NCBI RefSeq assembly: GCF_006345805.1
Contig: NC_042998.1
Location: forward strand, 51,150,001 to 51,214,000
Length of the DNA: 64,000 bases
Reading direction: 5' to 3'
From: Octopus sinensis
Taxonomy: Eukaryota
Part shown: piece by piece, positions 25,473 through 61,594 of the stretch
How positions within the stretch are numbered: the stretch's first letter is position 1
How the letters are laid out: every line of letters starts with the position of its first letter
Notes under the pieces: generated by a model
What the model was told of the DNA's origin: nothing
What the model saw: the letters and a program-made list of their open reading frames with translations, nothing else
Database searches by the model: none
Program-made: the position numbers and the translations under genes

Positions 25473-25798
25473 TAAAAGACTCCGCCAGTTACGACGACGA
25501 GGGTCCCAGCTGATACGATCAACGGAACAGCTTGCTCATGAAATTAACGTGCAAATGGCTGAGCATTCCACAGACACATGTACCCTTAACGTAGTTCTCG
25601 GGGATAATCAGCGTGACACAGAGAGTGACAAGGCTGACCCTTTGAAATACAAGTACAACTCATTTTTGCCAGCTGAGTGGACTGGAGCAACGTGAAATAA
25701 AGTGTCTTGCTCAAGGACACAACGCGTCGCCGGGAATCGAACTCACAACCTTACGATCATGAGCCGAATGCCCTAACCACTAAGCCACGCGCCCTCAC
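25473..25798 (-). mobile_element. Young tRNA-derived SINE, head E plus tail 2
   Basis: TGGCTTAGTGG / GAGTTCGATTCC boxes. 13-bp TSD GAGAA(G/A)ACCCATT. Four differences from 61270-61594. Confidence 0.9.
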
Positions 25799-29232: not shown

Positions 29233-30684
29233 CAAGACTTCCTTCAGTCTTGAATGACTATGGGATTGTACCTTGAAAGTTGCCCCACAAGGCACAAGTC
29301 TGGGCAAGGTTGTTTTATAAAAGACCAGGAGTCACACATGCATACCGGCCTCCCTTCTTCACGCCACCGATGTTATCCAAGGAAAAGGCAAAGGCTGAAA
29401 CAGCTTGGCACCAGTGACACCACAACTCATTTCTACAGCTGAGTGGACTGGACCAACATGAAATAAACTCTGTTGCTCAAGAACACACCACAGAGCCCAG
29501 TCCAGGAATCGAACTCACTACCGCATGATTGTGAGCCTGATGCTCTAACCACTGAGCCATACACCTATTGCAGACAAGAAAGTAAATTTCAAACGCAATG
29601 AAGTTGCAAAGACTGCAGAGAAAGACTGGGTGTTTACTCTTATAAGATGTAACAAAGATACCAGAAGGCAGCAACAGGACTCATACCCCTCAGACACTGG
29701 CTGAGTGCTCTAACCATTACATTAAATGGCCCCCAAACCACAATTAAAGTCAATTTTAAATAAAAGGTATATACTCTTTTACTCTCTTTTTACTCTTTTA
29801 CTTGTTTCAGTCATTTGACTGCGGCCATGCTGGAGCACCGCCTTTAGTCGAGCAAATCGACTCCGGGACTTATTCTTTGTAAGCCCAGTACTTATTCTAT
29901 CGGTCTCTTTTGCCAAACTGCTAAGTAACGGGGACGTAAACACACCAGCATCGGTTGTCAAGCAATGCTAGGGGGACAAACACACATACACAAACACACA
30001 CCCATACACACACACATATATATACATATATACGACAGGCTTCTTTCAGTTTCCGTCTACCAAATCCACTCGCAAGGCATTGGTCGGCCCGGGGCTATAG
30101 CAGAAGACACTTGCCCAAGATGCCACGCAGTGGGACTGAACCCGGAACCATGTGGTTGGTTAGCAAGCTACTTACCACACAGCCACTCCTGTGCCTATAT
30201 ACATATATCTTTTATGTTTTACTTGTTTCAGTCATTTGACTGAGGTTATGCTGGGACACTGAAGGGTTTTAGTCAAACAAATCAATTCCAGAGCCTATTT
30301 ATTTAGTTTTTGTTTTTGTTTTAGTTTTTGAAGCCTAGTACTTGTTCCACTGGGCTCTTTTCTTGAACTACTAAGTTACAGGAATGTAAACACATCAACA
30401 CCATTTGTTAAGTTGTGGAGAAGAGAGACAAACACAGACACACACGCATATAGAAAGATATATACATATATATGTGCATATATATACAACAAGCTCCTTT
30501 CATTTTCTATCTACCAAATCCACTCACAAGGCTTTGGTCAGTCTGAGGCTGGAGTAGAAGACACTTGCACAAGGTGTCAAGCAGTGGGTCTGAACCTGGA
30601 ACCATGTGGTTGGGCAGCAAGCTTCTTACTACACAGCCACACCTGCACATATATGTATGTATATGTATATGTATATGTATATAT

Positions 30685-33091: not shown

Positions 33092-34355
33092 CTCTATAAA
33101 GATGAAAGGTAAAGCTGATCATGTCAGTATTTGAACTGATAACATAAAGAGCCAGAACCGTATACTGCAAGGCATTTTTGTTTGAAGCACTAGTAATTCT
33201 ACCAATTCACCTCCACTGTCCTTATTCTGTGTTATTTATTGAATGGAATTCTTTGTCAGACATATATGTCGTTTGGACTCTATTATCTTTGCAAATCATT
33301 TTTAACCCTTTCTCTTAATTGCTTGTATGAATTTCTCTTGACCTTTTCAGCTGTAATTAGTCATTTTGTGGGCTAAATCAATATTAATGACCACATTCTT
33401 TAAAGTCTTCATTGTCTGTTTCTTTAGAGTAAGGAAAAAACCTATAAACATTATTTTTTTTTTGTTTCATTTTTAACATAATGCCTCATGCATTGTAAAC
33501 AGCCACAACAATCTTCAATTATTGTTATTTCCTTTTTTTTTTTTACCTTTTTTGGAAAAGTTTATGAAAGCAGCAGAATAATAAATTATTGCCAAACTAA
33601 AGTATTTATCAGATTTAAAACATATACTTCATTCAGCTAAGTGATAGCTTATTAAATCTATAGTAAACATGAAATGGAAAGGATCAAGAAGAGTCAATTG
33701 TTGTGCATTCACAAGAAAACAGATCAGTGATATGAGGTGAAAATGACTAAGCCAGATGAATGCCATACTGGTAAGAATGAGAAAGTAAACATTATTGTAT
33801 CAAGCGCATACACACATAGTTTAACAAACAACCTTGTGTGTGTGTGTGTGTGTGTGTATGTGTGTATGTGTGTGTATAGTGAGGAAGAGAAAGGGATGTG
33901 AAAGGGAATATGAGAAAGATCTAAGAACTGAACTAGAATCAATAAAGAATGATTTTGTAGACCAACAAAAGATCCTCACCTACCCAATAATAAAACTTAA
34001 TGGCCAAATAGCAACAATAAAAATATAAATGTAATGTAAACAGATATGCACATCAATATTGTTAGGGAAAAAATAAAAATCTAAATAATATATACAATAT
34101 ATACAGAAGCCACAGTAGTTATAAAAGAAAGTGTGAATTCCCTGAAGATTATCAAAAACCAAGGAAGCAGTTTGGGAAACAAGTCCTTATTTAATCAATA
34201 AGGATTATAGAAAAATATACAAAATAGAGACAAATGCTATAGAAATATAAAATAACCAATACATATACATACACGTGCACACACACACACACGTGCACAT
34301 ACATGCATACATAAATATATACATATTCATACATATGTGTGTGTGTGTGTGTGTG

Positions 34356-34790
34356 ATGAAGGTCACGGAGAGGGCCATAACTCAACTAATTAGGGAGAGA
34401 GTCTGCTTAGATGAGATGCAGTTCGGTTTTGTGCCAGGTAGAAGCACCACTGATGCTATATTCTTCGTGTGGCAACTGCACGAGAAATACCTAGCCAAAG
34501 ATAAACCCCTATACTTGGCTTTTGTGGACTTGGAGAAAGCCATTGACAGGGTCCTCCAATCCCTTATCTGGTGGGCAATATGGAAACTGGGGATTGACGA
34601 ATGGTTAAGGGCTGTACAAGCCCTATACAGAGATGCTATTAGTAAGGGTAGGGTTAGCAATGAGTATAGTGAAGAATTCCGGGTAGAAGTAAGGGTCCAC
34701 CAAGGATCATCCCTCAGTTCCCTTTTATTCATCATAGTCCTCCAGGCAATAAAAGAGGAATTCAAGACAGGTTGCCCCTGGGAGCTCTTT
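34356..34790 (+). mobile_element. RTE-clade LINE reverse-transcriptase fragment
   Basis: QFGFVPGRSTTDAIF...LAFVDLEKAIDRV...VHQGSSLSSLLF. Confidence 0.9.
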
Positions 34791-35410
34791 GCGTTCTGAG
34801 TTCAAATTTCACCAAGGTCAACTGAACCATTCATTCTTTCAGGGTCAATAAAGTAAGTACCAGTTGAGCACTGAAGTCAGTCTAATCAACTTACCCCCCA
34901 CCCTCAAAATTGTTGGCCTTGTGTCAAAGTTTGAAACCAATAATATTGGTTTCAAATTTAGGTACAAAGCCAGCAGTCTTGATGGGAGAAGCTACATCGA
35001 CCCCAGTACTCAACTGGTACTTATTTTTCAACCCTGAAAGGATGAAAGGCAAAGTTGACCTCATGGAATTTGAACACAGAATGTAAAGTTGGATGAGATG
35101 CCACTAAGCATTACACCCAGCGTGCTAACGATCCTGCCAGCTTGCACCTTTGAAACCAATAATAGACAGGATAAATAAACACCAGAAAAGTACCTGAGAA
35201 AACCCAAACTCATTTCCAGAATAACAGTAGGGATACTGTAAGGTCTCATATGGTTGTTAAGATCAATTACTCAATAAGTGAAAGCAATGGAATGAGAAAA
35301 AAGAGTCTGAACATAGCAGAGATTGACAACCAGAAAAATATTCCGGCACGTGTGGAAACATTAGCCATTAGTAAGAAAGCACCAGTAATAAACAGACATA
35401 TCACGTGTAT

Positions 35411-42120: not shown

Positions 42121-43365
42121 CATGGTGTAACAAGTAAATTGAAACAAGTTTCAAATGGGTATATTTCTAATTGTACAGATTTTGTTGGAGTCTAAATTTT
42201 AAACATTACCAGCATGAATAAGCACTCGTATTATTTTCTATCTCTGACTGAACAAATTATGAATGGTAATAATGAATTAAACCGTGGAAGTGTAATTGCC
42301 AAATTATTCCATGCCAGTAAAAGTGCTGGGAAATTGTTAGAGCCACAAAGGAGCCAAATCTATTGTTTTTAGAGTTGCAACCAATTTAGAGAAACGTCAG
42401 GTTGTTCAGAGAAAATCTCACAATCTTTGCAGTGACCAAAAATGCATACCTTGCTTCTTAGCAGAACTTGCAAGATCGATTGAGTCAAGCCCATCAAAAC
42501 CGATGGTGAAGTTGGCTCAAGATTGAGGAATCAGTAAAATGACCATTTCTGGGACTGTGAGACAAGACCTCCATATGAAATTGTACATGAGCAGACATCA
42601 TAACATCCTAACTACCTGCTCCAAAGCCATTCAAACTGAAAGAAGTCCCAAATTTCTTAGTCATCTGAAACATCGTGGTGGAATCGTCCGCATCTTCATG
42701 GATGAAAAGAAGTTCACGGTAGATGAAGTTGCAAACTATCGAAACTCACGAGTGATAATGTACAACCCTTCCCTAGTTCCTTCAGCTATGCATAGCAAGA
42801 ATCTATGTTTCATTATGGTCTTTGGAGCTGTTGTAAGTAATGGGAATTTGCTACCTCTACATTTTATTGAAGCGAGTCTTAAAATCAACATAGGAGACTA
42901 TCTCAAAATCTTAGAAGTTTTGTTGCCTTGGATCACGAAGCATTATGATGGAAGTCATGTCATGTTTGTACAGGACACTCAACACCTACTCATTCTTCGA
43001 AAAGAAAGCAAGAATTTCTGAAGAAGGAATTGTTCGTCCCAAAAGATATCTGGCCCTCTAGCTCACCAGATTTGAATCTGTGTGATTTTTGGCTACGGAG
43101 CACAGTTGAAGCAATATCTAATGCAACTTCACATTACTGTGTATCTTCACTGATGGCTTCAATCAAGCAAGCATTCAGTAAAATGAGAAAGAAAGAAATA
43201 GTTAAGGCATGCGTATCATTTCATTAACAGACTGAACTGGAATAAGTGGTAAACATGCCACAATAAATTGGCATAAACATAAAATTTGCAGTGTTTGATT
43301 TTTTTCAAGTTATACCAATTATAATTAAGATATTTAAATGATCCCAATTTACCTGTTACACCCTG
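42121..43365 (+). mobile_element. Near full-length maT/DD37D-like transposon of a second family; transposase pseudogenised
   Basis: TIR CA(T/G)GGTGTAACA(A/G)GTAAATTG and a 3' TA. ORF pieces give FMDEKKFTVD, MVFGAV, FVQD and WPSSSPDLNLCDFW. A frameshift prevents an exact spacing count. Confidence 0.85.
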
Positions 43366-45525: not shown

Positions 45526-46392
45526 CAGAGTGTGATGGATAAATTGTCACCATGTTATATTTTTAATTTCATGCATGTGCTTTGTTTGTTTTTGATTTTG
45601 TTGACTATACAGTATAGTAGGGTCAGTTGGACACCGTCTGTAAGAAAAACATTACCATGATTCAATTCTCTCTGCCAGAAATTTGGAAATGATATGCTGT
45701 ACTGCTTGGCATTTGTGCCAGAAGCTCCAATACGAACTGATGGTGAACACACAGAACAACCATTGGCTTGCTGTGTCCCCAAAACATGTACCAAGAGTGA
45801 TAAAAATCAAACATGGCGTGATCACCAGTGATGGCAACATTATTCCTCCATTCATCTTCCTACATGGCCTCAGACTCCACATGGAAGACAACATCAAGTG
45901 CCTGGAGAAAGTAGTGCTGTCTTGGGTCAAGACAGTGGTTGCTAGAAGACTCTATGACTGGCAGCAGGATTCTGCCACCATGCCACACAAGCAGGAGAAC
46001 CCAGTCATGGCTGTCAGACAATTTCTGCGGCTACATCACATCTAACATCTGGCTACCTAACTCCTCAGACTGCAACCCTCTTGATTATGTGTGGGGTGCA
46101 ATTGCGTGAGAGACCAACAAAACTCCTTATAACACCAAAGATGAACTGAAGGCAAGGATCATGGCAGCATTCACCAATTTAAACAAAGGAAACCATCCAG
46201 AAGAATTGTAGGAGATTCCAAAGTTGTCTGGAGGTCATGGTTGAAACCAATGGCAGTTTTATTGAATAAATTTACTCTTTAGTATTTCAAGATATCTTTA
46301 TGTAATTTGGGTAAATGTATCAGCTAAAATGAGATATCAGTGTTATTTTCATTTTTGCGTAATTTAGATGACAATATATTCACCACATCTTG
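45526..46392 (+). mobile_element. maT/ITmD37D internally deleted transposon (copy 3)
   Basis: TA-CAGAGTGTGATGGATAAATTGTCAC ... TGACAATATATTCACCACATCTTG-TA. QQDSA and SSDCNPLDY motifs, frameshifted. Confidence 0.85.
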
Positions 46393-47304: not shown

Positions 47305-48040
47305 TTTTCAATGAGTCACAGTGGTAAAGGCTCTATCATGTTTTGGGGTACTTTCTCATACAAAGGAATTAGGGAAATTCAGGTTGCATGGGGGCATCAA
47401 ACAGCAACTGGCTGTTGGCATGTCGGAGCGGGTATCACTCTGGACTGAAGGCCGTCATTTGTGTGGGGAAGGCTGGATTTATCAACAGAATAATGCTACA
47501 ATCCATAAAGCTCATAGGCCAAAGGATTTCTTCAGAACAAAAAACGTTCATCTTTTGAATCATTCTCTATGTTCTCCTGACCTAAACCTCATCTTTGAGG
47601 ATGGATGGCAAAAGACATTTACAAAAGTGGAATGCAATTTGAGACGGCAGGTGCTCTTTGCCAGGCAATCTTCACCGCATGGCATAACATTCTGGACAAC
47701 CTCCTGCAAATGCTTGTGTCAAGTATTCCACAGGGAATTTTTAAAGTTATTTGCAGGAATGGGGGAGCTACTGACTATTGAGTCCCCTTGTTAACTATTT
47801 ATTCATTATTTTCATTTTTATTATTTATCATGGTTTTAAACTTCTGACCAGGCAAAATATTGTTAGTTTTCATACAATGCATATTTTGTGCCTTAAATGT
47901 TAAACATTTGTTTAAGTTTTCATATATGTTTTTCTATTTGCCAATAATGAATCTATAATGAAAAATAGTTAAATGTGTCAGTCTACAAGGAGTTAATTTC
48001 AGCAGCTTTTTCACTGGTCTTAAGATATTGTCCAGCAGTG
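47304..48040 (+). mobile_element. Tc1-like transposon 3' relic
   Basis: WIYQQNNATIH...CSPDLNL motifs in ORF 47321-47794. Ends ...TTGTCCAGCAGTG, like a Tc1 TIR. Confidence 0.7.
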
Positions 48041-50323: not shown

Positions 50324-51790
50324 TTGGGCGTAAGTTTGTTAATCCATTAATCATTAATTAATGAAGTTAACATTTCTGTGAATGATTTAACTTTTAAGTT
50401 AACTTTGAAAATCATTATCGGACCAATTAACTTCTGTTATATTTAGCTTCCATTAACTCAAATCCGTTAACCCAAAAGTCATCTACTGCAGCCGCTTTTA
50501 GTCAACACAATTTTGCCCCCTTGGTCGACGCAGTTTTGGACCCTTAGTCAATGCAGTTTTGGCAGACATTGACAAAAGAATTGTGACCCTCCTGGATGAT
50601 GAGGAATGCCACCTGGCTGCTGCCTTCCACCCCAGGCTTCATTTCATTTAGTTGGATAGATATGATAGCACCAAGATCACCAATGTGAGGAGAAGCATGA
50701 AGGATAAGATCAAGGAGACCATGAAGCAACAGTCTAAGGAAGTGAGCAGCAACAATGAAGAGGATGAGAGGATGACTTCTGTGGTGTCACCCAACAAAAA
50801 GAGAGCAGATACCACAGGTCACTGAAGGACAAGGCCCAGAATTCAGTAAAGACCTGGTTGGAGACCAACTCCAAAGATCTACTGACAGATGCTGTCTTCT
50901 TGAGTGAGCAAGTGTTGGTGGACTTGTTTACGAAGTTCAACACAGCCATCCCTTCAAGTGCTGCAATTGAACATTTATTTTCCATGGGCAAGGACATCTT
51001 GAGTGCCAAGAGATCGTCCTTGTTTGATGAAAATTTTAGTATGTTAAAAGATACAGAAATGATTTATTCTCAAATGCCTGATAATGCTAATACAATAGCA
51101 TGAACAGGATAAACTATTCATATAGTGCAGAAAAATTTGTTACTGGCCAGCCAGCCATGAGACTCAAACTCACATGCCTGTGACGCATAATCACAGGGAT
51201 ATGAGTTCAAATCTCATGGCTGACCAGTAACGAATTTTTCTGCAATATATGGATAGTTTATCCTGTTCATGCTATTGTATTAGCATTATCAGGCATTTGA
51301 GAATAAATTATTTCTTTACCTTTCAATACATCTCAATGCTTCTAAAGCAAATTTTGTTTACTTTCATCGTAAGTTGAATTTAGTATGTGAATTTTCATGA
51401 AGGCAACATGAATCTCATCAACAAAATGGAGAAGAGGAAAAATTAAATTATGCATATATTGTGTTTTTCATTTTTGTTTTATTTTTTCACAGCTACATTA
51501 TCAATAAACTTTGTTTAGTTTAATATTAATATTGTGTTTCATTTCATGTTTTTTATGTTTTTTTTTGCTTTTATCCTTTTCTAGGTCTAAAAGCCTTTGA
51601 AACCCTAAAAAGGGCCAAAACTATGAAATCAGCCTTTTTTAGGCCCTTTGAAATTTAAAACTATAAAAACAAAATTTTTTTAACTCTAAGCAAAAACAAA
51701 AACAAAAAGAACTAGTTTTTAGGTTCTAAAGCCCTCAAAAAGGCCAAAAAAGTTGATTTTATAGTTTTGGCACATTTTAACCCTTTAGTG
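50324..51790 (+). mobile_element. hAT transposon relic with C-terminal dimerisation domain (split by the 51045-51378 insert)
   Basis: KFNTAIPSSAAIEHLFSMGKDILSAKRSSLFDENFSM resumes as ..FM(K)GNMN after the insert. Outer boundaries are approximate. Confidence 0.75.
51045..51378. mobile_element. Fold-back retro-insertion centred on a tRNA-like 3' half, inserted in a hAT transposase relic
   Basis: Arms of about 140 bp. 10-bp TSD TTTAGTATGT (51035-51044, 51379-51388). Centre is TGTGA-CGCATAA-TCACA-GGGAT-ATGAG-TTCAAAT-CTCAT. Confidence 0.7.
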
Positions 51791-61269: not shown

Positions 61270-61594
61270 TAAAGACTCCGCCGGTTACGACGACGAGGGT
61301 CCCAGCTGATACGATCAACGGAACAGCTTGCTCGTGAAATTAACGTGCAAATGGCTGAGCATTCCACAGACACGTGTACCCTTAACGTAGTTCTCGGGGA
61401 TAATCAGCGTGACACAGAGAGTGACAAGGCTGACCCTTTGAAATACAAGTACAACTCATTTTTGCCAGCTGAGTGGACTGGAGCAACGTGAAATAAAGTG
61501 TCTTGCTCAAGGACACAACGCGTTGCCGGGAATCGAACTCACAACCTTACGATCATGAGCCGAATGCCCTAACCACTAAGCCACGCGCCCTCAC
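61270..61594 (-). mobile_element. Young tRNA-derived SINE, head E plus tail 2. Older head-E copies at about 22625-22920, 29234-29567, 39405-39657, 53916-54170, 56566-56892
   Basis: Near-identical to 25473-25798. Confidence 0.9.

Follow-up and report, generated by a model that had tools for sequence, protein, structure and literature searches.

A dispersed tRNA-bearing repeat of Octopus sinensis as a likely non-autonomous passenger of PLE retroelements

The window analysed here, a stretch of 64,000 nucleotides of Octopus sinensis (NC_042998.1, positions 51,150,001 to 51,214,000), contains a palindromic insertion in a transposase-like ORF. The left part of the target, a decayed region resembling the C-terminal part of a hAT transposase, runs on the plus strand from approximately 50520 to 51047, and the frame resumes after the insertion at 51392-51440, on the same strand. 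The interrupted ORF is hAT-like, as its relatives show: one sister copy lies above the PF05699 cut-off (E 4.7e-5) and a second matches weakly (E 0.037), while the decayed 68-aa piece at the locus itself gave no Pfam match. An imperfect inverted repeat at 51600-51775, downstream of the ORF, is probably its subterminal region. The insertion is flanked by an exact 10-bp duplication (51035-51044 and 51379-51388), as a sequence-only reading of this DNA had reported. In sister copies of the host element that lack the insertion, the 10-mer is present once and the sequence reads on through, so that the insertion was one event; the earlier claim that a hAT-like ORF had been split in a single step therefore stands. 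The same comparison extends the target-site duplication (TSD) to 13 bp with one mismatch (51035-51047, of which the first 10 are exact, and 51379-51391, plus strand), and four of these bases match the element's own 3′ end too.

Between the two TSD copies lie two pieces of one repeat, arranged head to head. The inverted arms at 51044-51153 and 51217-51326 match at 93% over 110 nt; aligned in full they give 140 columns with one 4-nt gap, for an arm length of about 136-140 nt. This alignment, together with a DNA fold of z = -24 against 100 shuffles, confirms the palindrome of roughly 140-bp arms previously seen around CGCATAA, the 7-nt anticodon loop at 51184-51190 (plus strand), which reads CAT here, CGT in the family, and has a G at position 33. 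The T-loop TTCAAAT lies at 51206-51212. The right-hand piece is a direct, 5′-truncated copy (51181-51378, plus strand, unit 92-289) in which 186 of 198 bases are those of the subfamily A majority, and its right end is the long 3′ site. On the left, an inverted 5′-truncated copy (51048-51183, minus strand, unit 102-233) has as its outer end the short ('no tail') fixed 3′ site, unit 233 being the modal position of that site. Both arms contain the 3-bp microhomology at 51181-51183, which is the anticodon stem. All on the plus strand, the direct copy further holds the 3′ half of the internal tRNA-like module, with B box and T arm (51181-51226, unit 92-137), the trailer arm of a stem enclosing that module (51227-51247), which contains the only run of four or more Ts (51235-51239), and the 'tail', present on one side only, that separates the two fixed 3′ ends (51323-51378, unit 234-289). 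Between the arms there are 12 differences in 132 positions and a 4-nt duplication, while three departures from the majority are common to both.

These arms are pieces of a dispersed non-coding repeat of about 290-310 nt. Comparing the right arm with the 2.7-Gb assembly gave 1593 first-look candidates, and seven genome searches yielded a set of 210 loci, 167 of them distinct, falling into subfamilies A (89), B (33) and C (45); the unit measures 289 nt in the first, about 300 nt in the second and about 312 nt in the third. Copies diverge from their own subfamily majority by a median of 6-9%, which indicates an old family. A 25-base word from the tail occurs 222 times exactly in the genome (control, 0) and is exact in 19 of 74 good copies, from which we estimate that the genome likely holds one to a few thousand tail-bearing segments. 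The repeat is also present in sequencing runs of five organisms. Among the RNA sequencing runs listed, none had a useful share of it; in two RNA runs of a related organism, repeat reads fell on both strands and mostly continued into other sequence, with no start or end sites and no discrete RNA. Those reads came from copies inside longer transcripts, and the two runs are uninformative on a master RNA. At one locus (L156:500-1700) a subfamily A copy adjoins a subfamily C partial tandem, and one may have inserted into the other.

Full units carry a whole tRNA-like gene with A and B boxes at unit 64-137; the tRNA 5′ half, A box included, is thus present in full copies. With a relaxed threshold, ARAGORN calls a tRNA-Thr(CGT) on the majority sequences of all three subfamilies, and with default settings neither the window nor a set of 30 loci yields a tRNA call. 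Rfam scores one natural copy at 38.7 bits, above the tRNA cut-off, and the tRNA half of this locus at E 4.4 only. The middle base of the anticodon is G in 54 of 64 segments and A in 9, so that the CAT of this locus is the product of CpG decay, and the label tRNA-Met is not supported, CGT being the anticodon of each of the three subfamilies. The non-canonical G33 is a true family trait (54/64 segments). As for the 5-bp anticodon stem, it does exist at this locus, but it is partly a product of the inversion; the family stem has 3 Watson-Crick pairs and is imperfect in subfamilies A and B. The CCA is no encoded tail: it consists of acceptor-stem bases and the discriminator, one G having changed to A. 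The host Thr(TGT), Thr(CGT) and Lys tRNAs and a Met-like SINE head all have 45-50 identities with the module over about 75 positions, in a comparison set that includes no true host tRNA-Met; a Met ancestry is possible.

Other tRNA-like sequences were met along the way. A separate, abundant group of ordinary SINEs (L261-L290) has a tRNA-Met(CAT)-like 5′ head on at least two different bodies, and a pattern search gave 304 matches (control, 14). Over 58 nt this head shows 76% likeness to the subfamily C module, of which it may be the source. Three minus-strand stretches of the window (25732-25787, 29505-29559 and 61528-61581) are weak profile matches to the tRNA module only, and are probably heads of ordinary SINEs. 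Elsewhere in the genome, about 20 identical tRNA-Ile(AAT)-like matches lie within 51 kb (G000:C4:115571554-115622560), and an apparent intron-containing tRNA-Leu-like gene, recognised by eye, sits between microsatellites at L137:612-713.

Around the module lies an inverted repeat (unit 43-63 and 137-157) that prolongs the acceptor helix. Subfamilies A and B differ by 19 substitutions, 12 of which fall in this enclosing stem; 8 of the 12 make up four Watson-Crick swaps, and one pair is broken. In subfamily C the acceptor pair 68/132 and the pair 181/203 are also swapped, and pairing is poorer in some stretches of the enclosing stem. Such compensatory swaps could come from selection on RNA structure or from arm-to-arm copying. 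The only run of at least four Ts in each unit (T5-T6) lies directly 3′ of the tRNA, about three such runs being expected by composition. The anticodon loop with its preceding base forms a self-complementary ACGCGT (unit 94-99; window 51183-51188, where it is decayed), which is kept in all three subfamilies despite its two CpGs and could be a kissing loop.

Among 88 subfamily A loci, 35 of the 3′ ends lie at unit 222-247, 46 at 278-296 and 7 elsewhere, so that 81 fall in two clusters about 55 nt apart, while the 5′ starts are spread from 1 to 267; which of the two sites appeared as the main end was biased by the search queries. The stretch between them forms a tail of about 55 nt, found at one end only. 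Both kinds of arrangement that the hairpin had led one to look for in other copies are frequent: head-to-tail partial tandems (pseudo-LTRs) in 39 of the 88 loci, and an adjacent inverted copy, itself truncated at its 5′ end, in 41 of 88 loci in A (where it lies on the 5′ side), 16 of 27 in B and 2 of 29 in C. Direct junctions are colinear, end to start, in 34 cases out of 40, the other 6 not, and two loci (L207 and L311) span three units. When both ends of an inverted A insertion can be classified, a short end is paired with a long one in 27 of 29 cases (Fisher p 1e-5; the 29 include this locus, and 12 of the 41 loci have an unclassed end and are left out). In B, an independent set, all 12 classifiable inverted insertions combine a short and a long end, with 4 of 16 unclassed. 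A microsatellite lies within 40 nt downstream of 40 of the 88 copies, against a background of 10%, with a bias for (TA)n, and 17 of the 88 show a TSD of 7-20 bp, some of these being ambiguous in (TA)n, whereas mismatched controls give 6%. A test for a MITE found no fixed palindrome, no fixed terminal inverted repeats and no constant TSD among the family copies. With its truncation, tandems, inverted copies, one-sided tail and (TA)n bias, the family bears out the earlier proposal of PLE-style integration in place of that of an ordinary SINE.

How do the two arms come to be joined? The inner ends are spread along the unit, and both lie in the anticodon arm in only one of 41 junctions, that of this locus. 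Junctions overlap by 1-3 bases in 17 of 41 cases and are near-symmetric in 15 of 41 (permutation p 6.5e-4), an excess over chance from which we conclude that local stems guide the joining. Non-consensus bases are in common between the arms of one locus at 0.0098 per base, compared with 0.0033 between loci, and this threefold sharing points to one source template for both arms. In six loci (L006, L038, L100, L117, L145 and L155), however, each arm contains sequence that is absent from the other, so two priming events are needed. The idea of a cDNA snapping back at the anticodon stem therefore survives in part: the 3-bp stem is indeed the microhomology at this junction, where snap-back is possible, but the anticodon is no special axis, and snap-back gives no reason for the position of the left arm's end, at unit 233, the second fixed end of the family. 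Neither this single locus nor its anticodon pivot is special within the family.

The template can be narrowed down from the same data. The label 'tRNA-headed' does not fit, the tRNA being internal: 2 of the 88 5′ ends lie near its +1 (unit 59-70), and no junction does. As 5′ ends and junctions are not at unit 64, and as the T-run, which should stop Pol III, precedes both 3′ initiation sites, the template was either multimeric or circular, the colinear multimers being as compatible with a circle as with a long transcript. Among the 147 query-unselected 5′ stops, 22 fall at +1 to +14 on the 3′ side of tRNA position 58 (p 8e-6, for a stretch that was selected once the data had been seen). Subfamily C has 12 stops in this stretch and none in the 14 positions before it, the A stops are spread from +1 to +28 (p 0.06), and B has no peak (p 0.3). 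The modified base m1A58 is a block to reverse transcriptases, and a stall at a long helix instead of m1A58 also fits the pile-up. It is likely that the RNA was folded as a tRNA when copied.

Neither strand of the three subfamily majorities contains CUGAnGA, the sense strand is also devoid of GAAA, and Rfam scans of the family returned no ribozyme family. All hammerhead permutations need both motifs, according to PMC10085705, and the unit thus has no hammerhead core; a ribozyme of undescribed type is possible. One hammerhead-like three-way junction on the antisense strand was rejected as a candidate, as it has no CUGAnGA and is lost in subfamily C. The genome holds many PLEs with open RT and GIY-YIG frames. 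The 3′ homology to a PLE that the earlier reading had proposed to look for did not appear: the unit matched none of 30 GIY-YIG loci and 20 longer PLE stretches, sampled from the 147 of 5029 GIY-YIG candidates listed with Naiads left out, nor one neighbouring PLE (L210). The unit itself has no RT or GIY-YIG frame and no match to PLE proteins, and a frame of about 78 codons without a stop, which spans the junction between units, likewise matches no PLE protein. The best nhmmer partner match (in L074/L137) was discarded, as it looked like an unrelated tRNA gene. PLE-protein matches occur in 6 of the 210 loci, separate from the unit, and the one inspected was an unrelated neighbour.

Several of the elements met in these searches deserve mention. 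One family copy is followed, some 90 bp further downstream, by a decayed, GC-rich and 5′-truncated Neptune-like PLE (L210:2090-3265 / L341), which is only 21-31% like the common PLE proteins here, has a hammerhead-like end and has no homology to the unit. A young Neptune-like PLE family (L125, L127, L128, L122) has two open, overlapping frames of about 480 and 780 aa in a unit near 5.9 kb. In the window, transposon-like frames were seen by eye at 34251-34799, 42527-43021, 45644-46045 and 47315-47794, one of which resembles a piece of an RTE-type RT and three of which resemble pieces of Tc1/mariner-type transposases.

The insertion layout of this family is that described for PLEs in PMC8557442, and PMC3846280 gives inverted pLTRs, 8-10 bp TSDs, an optional tail and trans mobilisation as PLE properties. 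In vitro work on one lizard PLE traces the tail to the sequence that separates two internal RT start sites, and shows cleavage and extension of both strands of the target (PMC11167929). As these three sources portray the endonuclease-bearing PLEs (Penelope/Poseidon, Neptune, Naiad), they have in common with our family the 5′ truncation, the partial tandems and the adjacent inverted copy, as well as the one-sided tail, a TSD of 8-13 bp or none, the (TA)n bias and the palindromic junctions. The family differs from them in having no ORF, a unit of about 290 nt, a tail of about 55 nt and an internal tRNA-like module, and it has no homology to the autonomous PLEs sampled. Metazoan non-LTR retrozymes are likewise non-coding tandem units, of 170-400 nt, presumed to be PLE passengers with a multimeric or circular template (PMC7229834; bioRxiv 10.64898/2026.07.22.740005); as presented there they are defined by the hammerhead, whereas our family has no hammerhead core, carries a tRNA-like fold instead, and has a circular RNA that is only putative. 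The Chlamys elements, e.g. MRC1, are also non-autonomous, pLTR-forming, head-to-tail and generally without a canonical hammerhead; they have 3′ sequence in common with an autonomous partner, of which we found none here, and the available text of PMC8557442 mentions no tRNA module in them.

Like the family, tRNA-derived SINEs have A and B boxes and a tRNA ancestry. Here, in contrast, the tRNA is internal and complete and is followed by a T-run, the ends are of PLE type, and the 3′ junctions examined show no LINE tail. The Schistosoma repeat SMalpha has a tRNA origin. It too is a short, tandem-prone, SINE-like repeat of the PLE and retrozyme world, with an active type I hammerhead that our family does not have (PMC8490949). 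The octopus repeat surveys PMC13282606 and PMC8967140 report Penelope elements and many unclassified SINEs, with no link between them in the available text, and short non-autonomous Penelope elements of butterflies are mentioned without detail in PMC6685494. In the literature searched, with Repbase/Dfam, most subscription journals and supplements outside its reach, no PLE passenger that bears a tRNA and is free of a hammerhead is described, and the supplements or repeat libraries of the octopus and butterfly surveys may hold the family under another name. All in all, the family is likely a type of non-autonomous PLE passenger, and not a retrozyme, an ordinary SINE or a MITE.

We consider it probable that this repeat of about 290 nt, with its tRNA, is copied in trans by the RT/GIY-YIG enzyme of a PLE from multimeric or circular RNA. 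The enzyme would cut the two strands of AT-rich DNA 9-13 bp apart; one 3′-OH would prime reverse transcription at the long site (unit about 289) and the other at the short site (about 233). Both cDNAs would stop early and then be linked head to head through a short complementarity. In so hairpin-rich a unit, the bases involved would often be those of a stem, at this locus the anticodon stem. More tentatively, the tRNA may have been captured as an internal Pol III promoter, and its fold, kept in the template RNA, may have stalled the enzyme. It is the footprint that makes the family a probable non-autonomous PLE passenger. Against this explanation, no partner turned up among the PLEs sampled, no discrete RNA was detected, the tail of about 55 nt is longer than the 30-40 bp of the papers, the near-symmetric junctions also fit self-priming, and subfamily C rarely inverts.

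The same footprint would be left if the copies were truncated terminal-repeat stubs of an autonomous PLE such as a Naiad, with the unit as tandem repeats in its untranslated end. Strong 5′ truncation could then hide the ORF, and Naiads do occur in Octopus, have no canonical HHRs and prefer (TA)n, as described in PMC8557442. We find this unlikely: at 34 of 40 junctions the sequence that follows upstream is the unit once more, the 88 loci have no upstream flank in common other than common SINEs and microsatellites, 30 of 30 position-ordered matches of the tail 25-mer are plain family copies, and the PLE-protein matches in 6 of 210 loci are separate from the unit. Far less credible is a Pol III monomer headed by a tRNA, with the anticodon stem as the specific place where its cDNA folds back. 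The A and B boxes, the overlap of this junction by the 3-bp stem and the 15 near-symmetric junctions would suit it, and PMC3846280 reads palindromes at PLE junctions as self-priming. However, the tRNA is internal, with 2 of 88 5′ ends near its +1, the pivot lies in the anticodon arm once in 41 junctions, the outer ends are at fixed sites, and in the six loci with mutually absent sequence neither arm can be a copy of the other. As a family rule snap-back is largely refuted, whatever its local role at this junction.

We hold it to be very improbable, too, that the family is an ordinary LINE-dependent SINE or a DNA element (a MITE, or a Helitron/Helentron derivative) rearranged by twin priming or repair, in spite of its tRNA-derived part, the abundance of tRNA-headed SINEs in this genome and the palindromic form of this copy with a TSD of Mutator-like length. 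The 3′ junctions examined, in a comparison that left LINE libraries out, show no poly(A) or simple-repeat tail of the repeat's own, there are two fixed ends, and neither a fixed palindrome nor a constant TSD exists. Furthermore, the twin-priming pattern of LINEs differs from a head-to-head duplication of the 3′ part, which counts against a LINE.

Copying in trans by a PLE enzyme thus remains our preferred explanation, and it can be carried further, to a ribozyme-free class of PLE passengers in which host tRNA processing replaces the hammerhead and the RNA is circularised and read from two sites; taken jointly, these claims are doubtful. RNase P would cut a tandem transcript at each tRNA +1, and the leader/trailer stem, extending the acceptor helix, would hold the ends of the unit-length RNA as a nick to be ligated into a circle. 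The PLE enzyme would go round this circle from two fixed sites and stall at the modified T loop, and the self-complementary ACGCGU of the anticodon loop could pair two templates.

Normally, SINE-like passengers are linked to LINEs, and for the animal PLE passengers described so far the hammerhead is the defining feature. In the family studied here, the tail signature of a lizard PLE in vitro would also mark cargo moved in trans, and the end-pairing counts argue that PLE inversions arise from priming at both target strands. The repeat offers a minimal 290-nt template for asking what a PLE enzyme recognises, and some of the 'unclassified SINEs' of such genomes may be PLE-dependent.
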